DNA of 64,000 nt, from sequence record PV245934.1; one strand, given 5' to 3'. This document shows, one piece after another, positions 4,477 to 43,254 of the stretch (position 1 is the first letter of the stretch; the number at the start of each line of letters is the position of its first letter). Position numbers and translations under genes: made by a program. The notes below the pieces were generated by a model. The model had not been told where the DNA came from. It did not search any database and saw only the letters and a program-made list of their open reading frames with translations. The stretch is from Escherichia phage sutha.

Positions 4477-6042
4477 ATGACTATCAAAACTAAAGCTGAA
4501 CTTTTGAACAAATGGAAGCCATTACTGGAAGGTGAAGGTTTACCGGAAATTGCTAATAGCAAACAAGCGATTATCGCTAAAATCTTTGAAAACCAGGAAA
4601 AAGATTTCCAGACAGCTCCAGAGTACAAAGACGAAAAAATCGCTCAGGCGTTCGGTTCTTTCTTAACAGAAGCTGAAATCGGTGGTGACCACGGTTACAA
4701 TGCTACTAACATCGCTGCTGGTCAGACTTCTGGCGCAGTAACTCAGATTGGCCCAGCTGTTATGGGTATGGTACGTCGTGCTATTCCTAACCTGATTGCT
4801 TTCGATATTTGTGGCGTTCAGCCGATGAACAGCCCGACTGGCCAGGTATTCGCACTGCGTGCAGTATATGGTAAAGACCCAATCGCTGCCGATGCTAAAG
4901 AAGCATTCCACCCAATGTATGGTCCAGATGCAATGTTCTCTGGTCAGGGTGCTGCTAAGAAATTCCCAGCTCTGGCTGCTAGCACACAAACCGTTGTAGG
5001 TGATATCTATACTCACTTCTTCCAGGAAACTGGTACTGTGTATCTGCAAGCTTCCGCTGTAGTAACAATCGATGCTAGTGCTAACGATGCAACTAAACTG
5101 GATGCTGAAATTAAGAAACAAATGGAAGCTGGTGTACTGGTAGAAATCGCTGAAGGTATGGCTACTTCTATCGCTGAACTTCAGGAAGGTTTCAACGGTT
5201 CTACCGATAACCCATGGAATGAAATGGGCTTCCGTATCGATAAACAAGTTATCGAAGCTAAATCTCGTCAGCTGAAAGCTGCTTACTCTATCGAATTAGC
5301 ACAAGACCTCCGCGCTGTTCACGGTATGGATGCTGATGCTGAACTGTCTGGTATTCTGGCTACAGAAATCATGCTGGAAATCAACCGTGAAGTTGTTGAT
5401 TGGATTAACTACTCAGCTCAGGTTGGTAAATCTGGTATGACCCTGACTCCGGGTTCTAAAGCTGGTGTATTTGACTTCCAGGATCCGATTGATATTCGTG
5501 GTGCTCGCTGGGCGGGTGAATCCTTTAAAGCTCTGTTGTTCCAGATTGACAAAGAAGCAGTTGAAATTGCTCGTCAGACCGGCCGTGGTGAAGGTAACTT
5601 CATTATCGCTTCCCGTAACGTAGTTAACGTTCTGGCTTCAGTTGATACCGGCATTTCTTATGCTGCGCAGGGTCTGGCTACCGGCTTTAATACTGATACT
5701 ACCAAGTCAGTATTTGCTGGTGTTCTGGGTGGTAAATACCGTGTATATATCGACCAGTATGCTAAACAGGATTATTTCACTGTAGGTTATAAAGGTCCGA
5801 ACGAAATGGATGCTGGTATTTACTATGCTCCATATGTAGCTCTGACTCCGCTGCGTGGTTCCGATCCGAAGAACTTCCAACCAGTAATGGGATTCAAAAC
5901 TCGTTACGGTATCGGTATCAACCCATTTGCAGAATCCGCTGCTCAGGCTCCGGCTTCTCGCATCCAGAGCGGTATGCCTTCTATTCTGAATAGCCTTGGT
6001 AAAAACGCTTACTTCCGCCGTGTATATGTTAAAGGTATCTAA
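4477..6042 (+). CDS. 23: major capsid protein gp23
   Basis: 521 aa; MTIKTKAELLNKWKPLLEGEGLPEIANSKQAIIAKIFENQ... matches T4 gp23 by recall. Confidence 0.97.
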   Translation: MTIKTKAELLNKWKPLLEGEGLPEIANSKQAIIAKIFENQEKDFQTAPEYKDEKIAQAFGSFLTEAEIGGDHGYNATNIAAGQTSGAVTQIGPAVMGMVRRAIPNLIAFDICGVQPMNSPTGQVFALRAVYGKDPIAADAKEAFHPMYGPDAMFSGQGAAKKFPALAASTQTVVGDIYTHFFQETGTVYLQASAVVTIDASANDATKLDAEIKKQMEAGVLVEIAEGMATSIAELQEGFNGSTDNPWNEMGFRIDKQVIEAKSRQLKAAYSIELAQDLRAVHGMDADAELSGILATEIMLEINREVVDWINYSAQVGKSGMTLTPGSKAGVFDFQDPIDIRGARWAGESFKALLFQIDKEAVEIARQTGRGEGNFIIASRNVVNVLASVDTGISYAAQGLATGFNTDTTKSVFAGVLGGKYRVYIDQYAKQDYFTVGYKGPNEMDAGIYYAPYVALTPLRGSDPKNFQPVMGFKTRYGIGINPFAESAAQAPASRIQSGMPSILNSLGKNAYFRRVYVKGI

Positions 6043-35781: not shown

Positions 35782-37369
<1,588 letters not shown>

Positions 37370-37377
37370 AATAAAAT

Positions 37378-37391
37378 GGGCCTTGCGGCCC
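37378..37391. terminator. hairpin GGGCC-ttgc-GGCCC
   Basis: Perfect stem between nrdB stop and denA start. Confidence 0.5.
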
Positions 37392-37396
37392 ACTCC

Positions 37397-38566
37397 TTAA
37401 AAATATTTTTTAAAACTCATCATAACTTTATCATCAACATCATTATCAATCTGTGCTACAAGGTAAGATGACAGTTCTACTTCTTGTGGCGCGGATTGAA
37501 CATTATCAGAATTAAGATATTCACGAATCCAAGGATACGGATGTTTAACCGGAGCATCAGTAATTGGGCATGGAAGACCACACTGTTTCATACGAGATAC
37601 AGTTAAGTAATCAATAAAGCTCCACATGCTATTTGTATTTAATCCAGGAACATCGCCATCTTTAAATAAATGAACTGCCCAGTCTTTTTCTTGACGGTTA
37701 ACTTCCATGAAAATATCAACTGCTTCTTGTTCACACTCTTGGGCGATTTTAACCCATTCATCACCATCAGTGCCAAGTTGAAGTTGACGAATAATATATT
37801 GGGTGCCTTTAAGGTGAAGCTGCTCATCACGTGCAATGAACTTCATAATCTTGGCATTACCTTCCATAATTTCCATGTTCTTATGGAAGTTAAAGGTACA
37901 TGCGAAAGATACATAAAAACGAATAGCTTCCAATGCGTTGATTACATGAAGGCAAAGATAAAGAGATTTCATTAGTGCCCGTTTAGTATATTCAACAACT
38001 TTGCCTAGCTCTTCTTTACGAAATCCTTCTGATAAAATTCCTTCATAATCTTCAACCGCATTCTGATATTCACGAGTCTTAACTAGAACATCATCATAAT
38101 AGCGACCAATAGATTCAGCACGTTTCATGATAGCTTTATCTAATACAATCTCATCAAATACCTTTGATGGATCAGTATAAAGATTTCGCATAATATGAGT
38201 ATATGAACGGCTGTGAATAGTTTCGCTAAAAGTCCATGTAGCAACCCATGTATCAAGACTTGGGTCTGAAATTAACGACATAAGTACAGCAGACGGCGCA
38301 CGACCCTGAATGCTATCCAAAAGTGATTGATACTTCAGGTTATTAGTAAAAATATCTTGCTGATATTGAGGAAGCTTGTTAAATTGTGCAGCATCCATCA
38401 TTAAGTTTACTTCTTCAGGACGCCAGAAAAATGATAACTGCTTTTCGGTTAAATCTTCAAAAACTTTATGGCGTTGAATATCATAACGCGCAATACCAAG
38501 ACCTGAACCGAAGAACATAGGTTCTTTTAAAACATCAACTGGATTTGTATTAAAAACTGTGCTCAT
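37397..38566 (-). CDS. nrdB: ribonucleotide reductase small subunit NrdB, uninterrupted (no intron)
   Basis: 389 aa continuous ORF MSTVFNTNPVDVLKEPMFFGSGLG...KKYF with di-iron radical signature; T4 nrdB is split by an intron, this copy is not. Confidence 0.95.
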   Translation of the reverse strand: MSTVFNTNPVDVLKEPMFFGSGLGIARYDIQRHKVFEDLTEKQLSFFWRPEEVNLMMDAAQFNKLPQYQQDIFTNNLKYQSLLDSIQGRAPSAVLMSLISDPSLDTWVATWTFSETIHSRSYTHIMRNLYTDPSKVFDEIVLDKAIMKRAESIGRYYDDVLVKTREYQNAVEDYEGILSEGFRKEELGKVVEYTKRALMKSLYLCLHVINALEAIRFYVSFACTFNFHKNMEIMEGNAKIMKFIARDEQLHLKGTQYIIRQLQLGTDGDEWVKIAQECEQEAVDIFMEVNRQEKDWAVHLFKDGDVPGLNTNSMWSFIDYLTVSRMKQCGLPCPITDAPVKHPYPWIREYLNSDNVQSAPQEVELSSYLVAQIDNDVDDKVMMSFKKYF

Positions 38567-38617
38567 AAATTTTCCGCTTAGTTAATAGATAGTGACTCGT
38601 CCGTGAGTCAAATTATA

Positions 38618-40882
38618 TCATAATTTACAGGATGAACAATCTTCAGCTTTTGGAGTTTCTATTTCATAATCATCAGTACCAGAACCATCGCGGGTATTAT
38701 GATAATAGAAATTTTTTCCGCCAAAATACCAAAAATACAAAAGGTCATCAATCATTATTGACATTGGAACCTTTCCTTTTGGAAAAATCTGCGGGTCATA
38801 ATATGTATTTGCTGAAGCTGATTGACATACCCATTTAAGCATAATAGCTACCTGCGTAAGATAAGGTTTATTACCTTTCTTAGCTAATTTCCACGTATAA
38901 TCATAGAGGTCTATGTTATGCTCAATATTGGGCACGACTTGATTAAAGGAACCCTCTTTTGATTCTTTAACAGAGACTGGTCCACGTGGAGGCTCGATAC
39001 CGTTTGTACTGTTAGAAACTTGGGAAGATGACTCACATGGCATAAGTGCTGATAATGTGCTATTACGGATGCCAAAGAGCTTAAGGTCTTCCCGCAGCGA
39101 CGACCAGTCACAAACGTATTTTGGAGCTGCGATTTGGTCAATCTTTTTATTGTACCAGTCGATAGGTAATTCGCCTCGAGACCAACGAGTGTCTGAATAA
39201 TATTCGCAAGGTCCTTTTTCTTTGGCGAGCTTAATGGATGCTTTAATGAGTCCATACTGCAATCTCTCAAATAGTTCATGTGTTAAATCGTTAGCATCTT
39301 CATAAGAAGCAAAGTTACTTGCCAGCCAAGCTGCATAGTTAGTAACACCTACGCCAAGGTTTCGACGCTTTTTAGCTTTTTCTGCTTCAGGAACTGGATA
39401 TCCTTGGTAATCCAAAAGATTATCAAGAGCGCGAACTTGAACTTCTGCTAATTCATTAATTTTATCTTGGTCTTGCCAATCGAAGTTATCCAACACGAAT
39501 GCAGATAACGTACACAATCCAATTTCAGCATCAGGACTATTCACATCATTTGTTGGAATAGCAATTTCACAGCACAAGTTACTCTGACGAATAGGTGCCT
39601 TTTCACGAATAAATGGAGTATAGTTATTCGTATTATCAATGAACTGCACATAAATCCTTGCTGTTCCTGAGCGTTCAGTCATTAGCAATTCAAACAGTTC
39701 ACGTGCTTTAATACGCTTTTTACGAATATTAGGGTCTTTTTCTGCGGCTTCATATAATTCACGGAAACGGTCTTGGTCTTTAAAATAAGAATAATAAAGC
39801 TCGCCACTCATTTCATGCGGACTGAACAAAGTAATGTAGTCGTTCTTTCCAAAACGTTCCATCATCAAATCATTCAGCTGAACGCCATAATCCATATGAC
39901 GGATACGGTTTTCTTCTACGCCTTTGTTATTTTTCAAAACGAGAAGATTTTCAACTTCCAAATGCCAAATAGGATAATAAGCAGTAGCAGCGCCGCCACG
40001 AATTCCACCCTGTGAGCATGATTTAACAGCAGTCTGAAAATGTTTCCAAAAAGGAATAACACCAGTATGGCGTACTTCACCTGTACCAATCTTAGAACCT
40101 TCGGCACGAATCATACCAACGTTAATACCAATTCCAGCGCGTTTGGAGATATATTCAACAATTGAAGCGGAAACCTTATTGATAGACTTCAGCGAATCAC
40201 CTGCCTCAATAACAACACATGAACTAAACTGTCGAGTCGGAGTACGACAACCAGCCATAATAGGAGTTGGTAATGAAATTTGTCGAGTAGATACTGCTTC
40301 ATAAAAACGAATAACATGTTTTAATCTATCAACAGGTTCATCTTGATGTAATGCCATTCCAATAGTCATAAATGCAAACTGTGGAGTTTCATAAATTTGA
40401 CCAGTGGTTTTATCTTTAACGAGATATTTTTCTTTTAATTGCATCGCCCCGGAATAAGTAAATTCCATATCCCGCTCGTGCTTAATTTTTGATTCTAAAA
40501 ATGTAATTTCTTCTGCTGAATATTTTGACAGCAGTTCAGGGTCATATTTACCTTCATTTACACAGTAAGAAATATGGTCAATAAATGAACGTGGTTCATA
40601 TTGCCCATAAACATGCTTACGAAGAGCAAACATTAAACAGCGAGCGGCTACATATTGATAATCAGGCTCTTCAACTGAAATAGAATTCGCAGCAGCCTTA
40701 ATTACAATGGTTTGAATGTCATCAGTGGTCATTCCATCACGGAGATATGATTTAATATTTTCATATAATTCATAAGGATCTACAGATGTTCCTTCGGCTG
40801 CCCAAGATAAAACTTTAATAATTTTTTGTGGATCAAAGCTCTGAGAAACACCACTACTTTTGATAACATTAATTAATTGCAT
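38618..40882 (-). CDS. nrdA: ribonucleotide reductase large subunit NrdA
   Basis: 754 aa from MQLINVIKSSGVSQSFDPQKII... matching T4 NrdA by recall; track ORF has a 32-codon in-frame extension; AGAGGA Shine-Dalgarno before ATG at 40882. Confidence 0.95.
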   Translation of the reverse strand: MQLINVIKSSGVSQSFDPQKIIKVLSWAAEGTSVDPYELYENIKSYLRDGMTTDDIQTIVIKAAANSISVEEPDYQYVAARCLMFALRKHVYGQYEPRSFIDHISYCVNEGKYDPELLSKYSAEEITFLESKIKHERDMEFTYSGAMQLKEKYLVKDKTTGQIYETPQFAFMTIGMALHQDEPVDRLKHVIRFYEAVSTRQISLPTPIMAGCRTPTRQFSSCVVIEAGDSLKSINKVSASIVEYISKRAGIGINVGMIRAEGSKIGTGEVRHTGVIPFWKHFQTAVKSCSQGGIRGGAATAYYPIWHLEVENLLVLKNNKGVEENRIRHMDYGVQLNDLMMERFGKNDYITLFSPHEMSGELYYSYFKDQDRFRELYEAAEKDPNIRKKRIKARELFELLMTERSGTARIYVQFIDNTNNYTPFIREKAPIRQSNLCCEIAIPTNDVNSPDAEIGLCTLSAFVLDNFDWQDQDKINELAEVQVRALDNLLDYQGYPVPEAEKAKKRRNLGVGVTNYAAWLASNFASYEDANDLTHELFERLQYGLIKASIKLAKEKGPCEYYSDTRWSRGELPIDWYNKKIDQIAAPKYVCDWSSLREDLKLFGIRNSTLSALMPCESSSQVSNSTNGIEPPRGPVSVKESKEGSFNQVVPNIEHNIDLYDYTWKLAKKGNKPYLTQVAIMLKWVCQSASANTYYDPQIFPKGKVPMSIMIDDLLYFWYFGGKNFYYHNTRDGSGTDDYEIETPKAEDCSSCKL

Positions 40883-40907
40883 AAGTCCTCTGTAGTAAGT
40901 TACTCCA

Positions 40908-40915
40908 TATAAATA
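40908..40915 (+). promoter_or_regulatory. late promoter TATAAATA for antisense homing endonuclease gene
   Basis: Exact TATAAATA 22 bp upstream of ATG at 40938, then AGGAG Shine-Dalgarno. Confidence 0.6.
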
Positions 40916-40937
40916 TAATTTTATATAGGAGAATATA

Positions 40938-41669
40938 ATGAAATCTGGAATATATGCTATTATAAACACTAAAACCAATAAGCACTATATAGGAAGTGCA
41001 ATTAATTTTGAAGAACGATGGAAACGACACTTCAAAGATTTAGATAATGGAAATCATCATTCAATAAAGCTGCAACGTTCTTATAATAAGCATGGGAAAG
41101 ATGCTTTCGTATGTAAAATCATAGAAGAACTTCCATACGAAAAATCTATCATTATTGAACGTGAAAATTATTGGATACATGAATATGACTCAAAGGAAAA
41201 TGGGTATAATATAGCAGACGCATCGTTTGGGGATACCTTATCTCATCACCCAAGAAAGCAAGAAATCCTTAATAAAATTTCAAATGCAATTAAAAATAAT
41301 AATTCAAAATTATCACCAGAAGAACTTAAGCAAAAACATGGTAGACCTAAAGATATTAAAGGTAAAACTATAGAAGAACACTATGGGTTAGATCGTGCTA
41401 TAGAAATAAGCAAAAAGTTCCAAGAAAGAAACGCTGCACTTAATATGAAAGGCATCAATAATCCATATTATGGACAGACACATACCAATGAAGTTAGAAA
41501 ACGAATTTCTGACTCACAAAGAGGTAAAAAGAAACCCCATCTAAGAGTAAGTATAGATGGGGTAGAATATCCAACAATAGCAGAAGCTGTGCGTCAAACC
41601 GGAATAAGCAGAAAACTTATATCTAAAAGATGTGCTCTAGATTGTTGGGAATCATATTTATACTGCTAA
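40938..41669 (+). CDS. free-standing GIY-YIG homing endonuclease, I-TevI-like catalytic domain with NUMOD/HTH C-terminus
   Basis: 243 aa; first ~100 aa ([21 protein letters not shown]...RWKRHFKDL...[12 protein letters not shown]...IIERENYWI...[13 protein letters not shown]) closely parallel I-TevI; C-term [22 protein letters not shown] and [22 protein letters not shown]; antisense to flanking nrdA/td. Confidence 0.85.
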
Positions 41670-41903
41670 AGTTCTACATTCGTCATATTGTTTTTCCGTT
41701 AAAACAGTAATATCATAATAACAATCTGAAGAAGTTTTAACTGTAGAAATTTTATTATCAAAATACTCACGAGTCATTTTATGAGTATAATATTTTTTGC
41801 CATAAATGACAATAGGCTGTTCTGGTCCTGGAACTTCTAACTCGCTTGGATTAGGAAGTGTAAAAAGAACTACACCAGAAGTATCTTTAAATCGTAAAAT
41901 CAT
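41658..41903 (-). CDS. hypothetical protein between td and nrdA
   Basis: 81 aa ORF, convergently overlaps the endonuclease 3' end by 12 bp. Confidence 0.6.
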
Positions 41904-42238: not shown

Positions 42239-43254
42239 CATTATGTTCAGATAAGGTCGTTAATCTTATCCCGGAATTATATCCAGCTGCATGTCACCAT
42301 GCAGAGCAGACTATATCTCCAACTTGTTAAAGCAAGTTGTCTATCGTTTCGAGTCACTTGACCCTACTCCCTAAAGGGATAGTCGTTAGGCATTTATGTA
42401 GAACCAATTCCACTTATCAGATTTTACACGGTAAGTAACTAATCCTGATGAAATTTCAAAATGTCTAGCCGCATCGGCTGCACATTCAAAAATAATCCCA
42501 TCGCATGAAATCTTTTTGATGTTAGCTGGCTTTTTGCCTTTCATCTTTTCAGATAGTTTAGTTTTAGTTTTTTCTGAATGTTTGTGATTAAAGAACGGGT
42601 TATTTTCACCTGAACGTTTTCGGCACTTTCCACAAGTATCGGCCGAAGATGGTATGCGAACACCGCATTTACAAAACTTGTGGTTTTCTGGATTCCATCG
42701 GCCATTTTTACTTCCGTGTTTACCATAAAGAGCTTTCCGACCATCAGGACCAAGCTTAAGCATCTTAGCTTTAACAGTTTCAGCTCGTTTCTTAGCAATT
42801 TCTTCTTTTAATGGATGATTTGAAAGCACATCGCCAAAAGACGCATCAGCAATATTATATCCATTAATTTTAGAATTTAGCTCTTTAATCCAAAAATTTT
42901 CTCGTTCAATAATCAAATCTTTCTCATATGGAATTTCTTCCAGTACAGAGCATTCAAAAACATTACCATGTTTATTAAAAGACCTTTGAAATTTTATAGA
43001 AGAGTGAACACCGTTTTCAAGGTCTTTAAAATGTCTCTTCCATCTTTTCTCAAAATCTTTAGCACTTCCAACATACACTTTACCGTTTAAAGTGTTTTTA
43101 ATCTGATAAATTCCGCTTTTCATAAACACCTCTTTTTATATAGAAGTATTTATTAAAGGGTAGTCCTACAATTTAGCACGGGATTGTCTACTAGAGAGGT
43201 TCCCCGTTTAGATAGATTACAAGTATAAGTCACCTTATACTCAGGCCTAAATTA
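42239..43254 (-). mobile_element. group I self-splicing intron of td carrying I-TevI
   Basis: 1016 bp between exon 1 end (...VDVFLG, GGT then TAA in intron) and exon 2 start (CTACCG); 5' intron sequence TAATTGAGGCCTGAGTATAAGGTGACTTATACTTG as recalled for T4. Confidence 0.9.
42386..43123 (-). CDS. intron-encoded GIY-YIG homing endonuclease I-TevI
   Basis: 245 aa from [35 protein letters not shown]...; zinc finger CKCGVRIPSSADTCGKC; C-term HTH ...VTYRVKSDKWNWFYINA; matches I-TevI by recall. Confidence 0.93.
   Translation of the reverse strand: MKSGIYQIKNTLNGKVYVGSAKDFEKRWKRHFKDLENGVHSSIKFQRSFNKHGNVFECSVLEEIPYEKDLIIERENFWIKELNSKINGYNIADASFGDVLSNHPLKEEIAKKRAETVKAKMLKLGPDGRKALYGKHGSKNGRWNPENHKFCKCGVRIPSSADTCGKCRKRSGENNPFFNHKHSEKTKTKLSEKMKGKKPANIKKISCDGIIFECAADAARHFEISSGLVTYRVKSDKWNWFYINA

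Follow-up and report, generated by a model that had tools for sequence, protein, structure and literature searches.

The nuclease domain and linker of I-TevI, the GIY-YIG homing endonuclease encoded within the td intron of T4-type phages, are used in engineered genome editors. A relative from the thyA intron of Bacillus mojavensis, I-BmoI, is without the zinc finger of I-TevI and contains NUMOD3-type elements. I-BmoI is an isoschizomer of I-TevI that acts on thymidylate synthase genes (PMC12774661). The published table of T4 homing endonucleases lists no seg gene, or other gene of this kind, between nrdA and td (PMC2988022); an 'other GIY-YIG' gene has been counted in phages RB16, 133 and Acc42 (PMC2993671), and one 'I-TevI-like' endonuclease is mentioned in phages 133 and Ac42 (PMC4177764). 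Here we analyze a 64,000-nucleotide stretch of Escherichia phage sutha (PV245934.1), referred to below as the window, in which an open reading frame (ORF) related to I-TevI is located outside any intron, between nrdA and td. We estimate a probability of roughly 0.8 that the product of this ORF is an active GIY-YIG homing endonuclease of the free-standing type, paralogous to I-TevI over its full length but lacking the zinc finger, and that its gene resides on a 787-bp cassette which also supplies a late promoter and a ribosome-binding site.

The endonuclease coding sequence (40938-41669, plus strand) comprises 243 codons plus a stop codon; it was identified by Pfam, by structure matches and by alignment with I-TevI. 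All of its substantial neighbors in the window (nrdB, nrdA, the 81-residue DUF5496 gene nrdA.2, the td exons, I-TevI and frd) are encoded on the minus strand, and 56 nt separate its start codon from the divergent nrdA ATG at 40882-40880. The ORF, the strands and the spacing thus agree with a first-pass annotation made from the sequence, which had described a plus-strand ORF in a minus-strand block, 56 bp from the nrdA start; the start coordinate given there, 40908, is the first base of an upstream TATAAATA motif and not the ATG at 40938. Because the gene lies on the opposite strand, between nrdA and nrdA.2/td and outside any intron, it is classed as free-standing ('F-' class).

Residues 1-96 (40938-41225, plus strand) form the GIY-YIG nuclease domain, which matches PF01541 in Pfam (E = 1.1e-15; 58.1 bits against a cut-off of 22.6) and the I-TevI nuclease domain structures 1mk0 and 1ln0 in the PDB (4e-40). 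In an AlphaFold model of the whole protein (mean predicted local distance difference test score 78.5), the nuclease fold superimposes on 1mk0 and 1ln0 with template-modeling scores of 0.92-0.94 and root-mean-square deviations of 1.5-1.9 Å. The catalytic residues Tyr6, Tyr17, Arg27, His31, His40, Glu76 and Asn91 are all present and are invariant in a 23-sequence family alignment; no inactivating change was found in the catalytic core. The following linker (residues 97-127; 41226-41318, plus strand) is homologous to that of I-TevI and shares its ADASFGD..HP motif, and Ala93, Ala95, Phe97, Gly98, Asp99 and Pro105 are invariant across the same alignment.

The middle segment (residues 128-170; 41319-41447, plus strand) occupies the position of the I-TevI zinc finger. 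It is predicted to be helical (helices 127-134, 145-149 and 151-167 in the model) and contains no cysteines: those of the protein are at positions 59, 232, 236 and 243 only, leaving residues 60-231 cysteine-free, and Pfam returned no match to I-TevI_ZnF (PF22635) in the endonuclease. A NUMOD3 segment (residues 171-199; 41448-41534, plus strand; helix 184-194 in the model) aligns to 1i3j and matches the part of I-TevI that precedes the helix-turn-helix. The Pfam NUMOD3 match covers two stretches, the best being residues 171-191 (E = 2e-6; 28 bits against a cut-off of 20.4). The C-terminus (residues 200-243; 41535-41666, plus strand) is assigned as a strand-strand-helix-turn-helix DNA-binding subdomain from PF20987, 1i3j and the model. 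I-TevI_DNA-bd (PF20987) aligns with residues 201-238 at 2.3e-4 and 21.4 bits, under its cut-off of 27; the I-TevI DNA-binding domain structure 1i3j is matched at 2.8e-7, and Foldseek pairs the C-terminal region of the model with the same domain at 1e-3. The modeled elements between residues 204 and 233 are strands 204-206 and 209-211 followed by helices 214-221 and 225-233. The free-standing antisense GIY-YIG endonuclease with an I-TevI-type nuclease domain, the missing zinc finger, and the NUMOD-like repeats with a terminal helix-turn-helix, all proposed in the first-pass annotation, are therefore borne out by the profile and structure comparisons.

The window also contains an orthologue of I-TevI itself, intron-encoded and with a zinc finger (42386-43123, minus strand; Pfam GIY-YIG, I-TevI_ZnF and I-TevI_DNA-bd). 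The free-standing endonuclease is collinear with this protein from end to end, with 108 of 242 positions identical (45%), three gap positions and E = 3e-70. Identity is 69% in the nuclease domain (residues 1-96), 48% in the linker, 12% at the zinc-finger position, 31% in the NUMOD3 helix and 27% in the helix-turn-helix, and the difference in kind between the two proteins is confined to the approximately 40 residues at the zinc-finger position. No closer relatives of I-TevI emerged from the searches made here than the family to which the endonuclease belongs.

Alignment with the non-carrier phages W143 and T4 defined the boundaries of a 787-bp mobile cassette (40891-41677), which occupies the place of nrdA.1 and of the 3' end of nrdA.2. 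Homology to W143 and T4 stops after ...CATAAGTCCTC (40890) and restarts at ATTCGTCATATTG (41678). At the left junction the nrdA start codon and its GAGGAC Shine-Dalgarno sequence (40880-40890, minus strand) are retained exactly, and the cassette begins directly beyond them. The left junction is identical in all carriers, and CATAAGTCCTC is identical in carrier and non-carrier genomes of both genera concerned, Tequatrovirus and Jiaodavirus. At the other end, the last 12 nt of nrdA.2 (DUF5496; 41658-41903, minus strand) overlap the 3' end of the endonuclease gene. Because the cassette ends inside the last nrdA.2 codons, the C-terminus of nrdA.2 has been rewritten: the window protein has 81 residues and ends ...YDECRTLAV, and its T4 counterpart has 87 and ends ...YDELFQRGPSMPGSE. 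The Pfam match of the former to DUF5496 (4e-53) covers profile positions 1-76 of 87. The replaced gene, nrdA.1, encodes a DUF4326 protein, and a search of the window for another nrdA.1 homologue found none. The reference T4 interval contains nrdA.1 and nrdA.2 and no endonuclease gene, in agreement with the first reading of the sequence. In two Klebsiella phages, KP179 and PKO111, nrdA and the cassette are separated by an extra ∼290 bp (L004 2750-3050), unannotated and containing a small minus-strand ORF; the left end of the cassette (CTGTAGTAAGTTAC...) is otherwise unchanged.

The cassette is present in 8 of 534 phage records that match its flanks, most of these being Tequatrovirus. The eight are all Tequatrovirus T4-type coliphages: TB004, RPN226, ECO07P5, CJY920, N2, LH2 and Ozark (two records). 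At the protein level, 26 records match with at least 80% identity, none fall between 60 and 80%, and below that gap come an Acinetobacter phage (51%) and I-TevI (∼46%). The remaining 18 close copies are from Klebsiella phages of the genus Jiaodavirus, where the gene is also located between nrdA and td; among the 154 records matched by the KpV477 locus, 18 carried the endonuclease gene and the others an nrdA.1 homologue and a small ORF. The idea that the gene was unannotated was not upheld, as 26 GenBank phage records already carry it with an endonuclease label, whether 'homing endonuclease', 'GIY-YIG nuclease family protein' or 'endonuclease I-TevI'; the label 'intron-associated endonuclease 1', also in use, is wrong.

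The element is less diverged than the DNA around it. Between the window and Jiaodavirus, the endonuclease coding sequences are 90-92% identical and the 47 bp upstream of the ATG 98% identical, as compared with ∼70% for nrdA and td. Within Tequatrovirus, carrier copies of the gene have 0-13 differences from the window copy in 732 nt (98.2-100% identity), as against 2.1-4.4% in the neighboring 991 nt of nrdA (95.6-97.9% identity); ECO07P5 has no differences in the endonuclease gene and 4.4% in the nrdA flank. All ten endonuclease copies compared are intact at 243 codons, with a ratio of nonsynonymous to synonymous substitution rates (dN/dS) of ∼0.11. A near-isogenic pair of Acinetobacter phages provides a further example: AbTZA1 carries a homologous gene (51% identical) in place of the nrdA.1 homologue and of the end of the small ORF that follows it, and Bhz15, with ∼100% identical flanks, is without it. 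Presence/absence polymorphism thus occurs in three phage lineages, and nrdA.1 is replaced alike in Tequatrovirus, Jiaodavirus and the AbTZA1/Bhz15 pair. Sporadic occurrence among close relatives, sharp boundaries at a fixed site and an element less diverged than its flanks, each of them typical of homing endonuclease genes, were found. Read from the sequences, patchiness, identity exceeding that of the flanks, intact ORFs and low dN/dS together are the standard signature of a horizontally spreading homing endonuclease gene that is selected for function.

Expression signals were read directly from the sequence. A T4 late-promoter motif, TATAAATA, is located at 40908-40915 (plus strand), 30 nt upstream of the endonuclease ATG, and a Shine-Dalgarno sequence, AGGAG, at 40927-40931 (plus strand), 6 nt before it, in agreement with the late promoter and ribosome-binding site noticed earlier. 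The motif is present 28-35 nt upstream of the ATG in nine of nine endonuclease copies compared, which come from several lineages and include Acinetobacter phage copies that are only 47-51% identical in protein. GGAG precedes the start codon in seven of these nine; the copy in L021 has AAGGAA, and AbTZA1 is without GGAG. Because TATAAATA is found upstream of the ATG in all nine copies, late expression of the gene is a well-supported prediction.

Additional promoter-like and terminator-like sequences are present within the cassette. A second TATAAATA, at 41655-41662 on the minus strand, lies in the last endonuclease codons and points back through the gene towards nrdA. This 3'-end motif occurs in seven of the nine copies (the one in L021 is not within the endonuclease ORF and shares bases with the td stop codon) and is absent from both Acinetobacter copies and from the nrdA-td interval of the non-carriers T4, W143 and JD18; it could be the source of a late antisense transcript or of late nrdA expression. 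On the minus strand at 40959-40985, within endonuclease codons 8-16, GTGCTT is followed 15 nt later by TATAAT, resembling a T4 middle-type promoter facing nrdA. A GATATAATAGCT block in the displaced nrdA.1, at a distance of 57 nt upstream of nrdA, is highly conserved, and the GTGCTT/TATAAT pair may represent replacement by the cassette of a promoter that it deleted, or chance combined with coding constraint. The 5' coding region of the endonuclease gene and the promoter-like block of nrdA.1 have a 9-mer in common, TATAATAGC (minus strand), which we do not regard as meaningful, since by our rough estimate several exact 9-mer matches are expected by chance in such AT-rich DNA. Finally, a weak terminator-like hairpin on both strands (5-bp stem, 8-nt loop, T-rich tail) lies in the 5' coding region at 40982-40999. 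Terminators have been reported in the 5' coding regions of T4 mobE and segF (PMC2988022).

From these data we infer cleavage activity, late expression, a target site and homing, as follows. Late in a mixed infection, the enzyme would be made from the TATAAATA promoter, and would be anchored by its NUMOD3 helix and helix-turn-helix to a long recognition site between nrdA and td in a co-infecting non-carrier phage. The tethered nuclease domain would then cut close to the bound site, and T4-type recombination-dependent repair would copy in the cassette, with the carrier as template, at the expense of nrdA.1. Carriers would themselves be immune, the cassette having removed or split their target site.

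The region of nrdA.1 is favored as the target because it is the sole sequence lost in all three lineages, with the left junction always at the nrdA start. We consider it roughly an even bet that the site is in the 3' part of nrdA.1 or where nrdA.1 meets the nrdA start. Across two subfamilies, conservation of the empty allele is highest in the block TGYCATGGYGATATAATAGCT, 57-77 nt upstream of the nrdA ATG, in which 18 of 20 positions are invariant. When the eight Tequatrovirus carriers (the window and seven GenBank phages) were compared with seven non-carriers, no fixed differences between the two groups were found in 991 nt of the nrdA 5' region or in nrdA.2 plus td exon 2. The same was true of 1.2 kb of Jiaodavirus nrdA. 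In td of that genus, fixed differences separating the two groups were confined to the last 7 nt, at the junction. No pattern in the I-TevI homing-site region of td separates carriers from non-carriers. Because the flanks are without fixed differences, immunity would be explained most simply by loss of the site.

Several points weigh against the proposal of a homing endonuclease that targets the nrdA.1 region and is expressed late. The TATAAATA octamer is common in the AT-rich window, with 20 copies against 9.3 expected by chance, and a lone copy taken by itself is poor evidence of a promoter. Free-standing T4 endonucleases such as SegF and SegG can cut sites that are still present in their own genomes, and the absence of fixed flank differences is for this reason not decisive. 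Across the wider family the linkage is to td, not to nrdA.1, as illustrated by the relatives P0042 and P0020, which lie downstream of td with no nrdA alongside. Purifying selection and long persistence at one locus would fit a domesticated function as well. Lastly, a literature search recovered no paper on the location, target or activity of this gene, and mentions were confined to catalogue entries for 'I-TevI-like' genes of Acinetobacter phages.

The state of td was compared among the carriers. In the window, Rfam matches a group I intron on the minus strand at 42287-42517, with E = 2.6e-7 and 36 bits, which falls short of the gathering score, and the split td reading frame supports the intron as well. 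No Rfam family reached its gathering threshold between 40500 and 44000, the sole group I match being the one in td, outside the cassette. Among the eight Tequatrovirus carriers, the intron with I-TevI is present in four (the window, RPN226, LH2 and TB004), an ORF-less intron of ∼250 nt in two (N2 and CJY920), and an intronless td in two (ECO07P5 and Ozark). The cassette and the td intron therefore assort independently, even though they are only ∼570 bp apart, and the carriers with intronless td or an ORF-less intron rule out that the endonuclease gene always travels with the td intron and I-TevI. The arrangement of two related nucleases flanking td that had been described for the window is accordingly not a fixed one, I-TevI being present in four of the eight. 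The ∼250-nt introns without an I-TevI ORF are at L008 4641-4888 in N2, L007 ∼4626-4874 in CJY920 and L012 4156-4403 in 236Ecol005PP.

The C-terminal region of td is itself variable, with several very different alleles. Alleles atypical of the genus are found in the carriers LH2, Ozark, Nispero, PKO111 and KLB2 (L009 and L010, td 3' half; L025-L027, columns ∼44-150 from the td stop) and in none of the non-carrier td 3' ends compared; at the protein level they resemble those of other carrier lineages (L018-L021). Linkage and shared ancestry cannot be separated as explanations of this pattern at these numbers. The ∼110-nt foreign stretch at the 3' end of td in Nispero, PKO111 and KLB2 was considered as a co-conversion tract and rejected; ∼43 nt of resident sequence lie between it and the cassette, and it may reflect shared ancestry, for which reasons it was not counted as evidence.

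These td data bear on the alternative that the enzyme targets td, as I-TevI and I-BmoI do, perhaps cutting intronless td in trans and mobilizing td introns, including ORF-less ones, by 'collaborative' homing of the kind described for mobE and I-TevIII and for F-CphI and the psbA intron. Every family member whose context was examined is located inside or beside td, and members of the nrdA/td clade are convergent with it. Metagenomic relatives with 78%, 75% and 56% identity are antisense between nrdA and td, as are the Acinetobacter phage genes (47-51%) and the more distant P0036; P0042 and P0020 are directly downstream of td, in the same orientation and without an adjacent nrdA, so that td is the one constant neighbor of the I-TevI-like family. 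I-TevI and I-BmoI cut homologous thymidylate synthase sites despite having diverged DNA-binding domains (PMC12774661), the ORF-less td introns of N2 and CJY920 are only ∼570 bp from the endonuclease gene, and an intronless td with the common td 3' end is found in none of the eight Tequatrovirus carriers as compared with three of seven non-carriers. On the other hand, this association is based on small samples, and the I-TevI homing-site sequences of carriers with intronless td are not set apart from those of non-carriers; ECO07P5 and BF15, and likewise KpV477 and JD18, differ there at just two synonymous positions. As the carrier td sites are like those of non-carriers, a target at the td junction would mean self-cleavage. 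The helix-turn-helix subdomain is only 27% identical to that of I-TevI, with a predicted second helix of SRKLISKRC as compared with SSGLVTYRV, and it is specifically nrdA.1 that is replaced in three lineages, with a precise left junction at the nrdA start. We regard td as an unlikely target on balance.

In a neighbor-joining tree built from residues 1-127, the clade that is intron-encoded and has the zinc finger is nested among free-standing lineages linked to td, as would also suit a td target. The tree is crude, with no bootstrap support and a weak outgroup, and is treated as suggestive only. A further possibility, which we hold tentatively and think doubtful, is that the free-standing lineage is the sister or ancestral form of I-TevI, was linked to td before one branch entered the td intron, and may still cut td and mobilize td introns in trans. 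If this were true, the phages compared here would provide a natural, testable series for the model in which a free-standing endonuclease invades an intron, from the free-standing gene alone, through the gene plus an ORF-less intron, to the gene plus an intron carrying I-TevI.

It is improbable that the gene is instead a domesticated nuclease or DNA-binding protein serving in marker exclusion of competing phages, in regulation, or as a supplier of nrdA expression signals. The dN/dS of 0.11, the intact ORFs in all copies compared, and the maintenance of the lineage at a single locus in two phage subfamilies, where protein identity falls as low as 47-56%, would suit such a function, as would the promoter-like motifs of the cassette that face nrdA and the additional activity of I-TevI as a transcriptional repressor (mentioned in PMC12774661). 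However, its patchy occurrence (8 of 534 and 18 of 154 records), the existence of closely related phages without it, and an identity far above that of the flanks are those of a spreading element and not of a fixed useful gene. Least probable is recent domain shuffling, the version put forward in the first-pass annotation, in which an I-TevI nuclease module was joined to an unrelated DNA-binding module: a nuclease domain with 69% identity followed by a middle segment with 12% and a C-terminal region with 27-31%, and the missing zinc finger, suggested it, but the proteins are collinear with three gap positions in 242 columns, the linkers are 48% identical, homology of the C-terminal region to the DNA-binding domain of I-TevI is significant (1i3j, 2.8e-7; Foldseek, 1e-3), and the whole clade has the same architecture down to ∼50% identity, so that any rearrangement must be old and limited to the zinc-finger position. 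The endonuclease thus looks like an old paralogue of I-TevI with a diverged DNA-binding half, for which divergence of the whole gene seems a better fit than a recent module swap.

Other mobile or nuclease genes were noted in the vicinity. In RPN226, 236Ecol005PP and one metagenomic contig, an HNH or NUMOD-type endonuclease gene splits nrdA into two ORFs (L001 1094-1804, L012 1094-1804 and L021 1729-2439), an arrangement that resembles the split nrdA of Aeromonas phage Aeh1; nrdA of the window is unsplit. In the region 37397-40882, nrdB (389 aa) is a single uninterrupted ORF and hence has no intron, and because the gap between nrdB and nrdA is only ∼50 bp there is no mobE- or hef-type gene between them, unlike in T4, N2 and KMB39. 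Just downstream of nrdB, a 144-aa minus-strand ORF (36959-37393; GTG start as listed) has a weak GIY-YIG match (5.4e-6). This ORF is a candidate T4 endonuclease II (denA) and probably not a homing endonuclease.

The gene is an uncharacterized member of a well-known kind, an ordinary selfish gene that leaves current understanding unchanged. It adds a previously unstudied, position-specific free-standing family to the T4 homing endonuclease system, and the near-identical phage pairs with and without it in three host groups make crosses straightforward. Its repeated insertion indicates that nrdA.1 (DUF4326) is dispensable and has been lost more than once to an endonuclease element. The linkage to td, and coexistence with introns that do or do not encode an endonuclease, could inform the origin of intron-endonuclease partnerships, and a natural variant with a zinc-finger-less linker could follow a different spacing rule.

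Among described systems, the T4 SegA-G endonucleases are similar in presumed lifestyle, being free-standing and intergenic, and localized marker exclusion and co-conversion would be expected here as well. In a tblastn search of the T4 genome at E <= 1e-5, however, the endonuclease matched only I-TevI (46% identity) and none of the seven seg genes. MobE with I-TevIII, and F-CphI with psbA, are likewise free-standing endonucleases near a gene bearing a group I intron that is sometimes ORF-less (PMC2790892; Zeng et al. 2009 as cited in PMC2993671); these are HNH and EndoVII-type enzymes with demonstrated targets, whereas homing in trans is at this locus a proposal. I-BmoI, as described, is likewise a relative of I-TevI without a zinc finger, and differs in being intron-encoded. 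The 'I-TevI-like' genes of Acinetobacter phages (133, Ac42, Kimel and AbTZA1) are also similar: the zinc finger is absent from the proteins aligned, and at both Acinetobacter loci examined, AbTZA1 and Meroveus, the gene occupies the same nrdA-td site in antisense orientation with TATAAATA upstream. They are separated from it by protein identities of 45-51%, by additional NUMOD3 repeats in some, and by the placement of the phages that carry them in another subfamily (Twarogvirinae). A further comparison is with I-TevI, with which the endonuclease shares a 69% identical GIY-YIG domain, homologous linker, NUMOD3 and helix-turn-helix segments, an upstream late-promoter motif and linkage to td, and from which it differs in being free-standing and antisense instead of intronic, in having a cysteine-free helical segment in place of the zinc finger, and in an overall identity of 45%.

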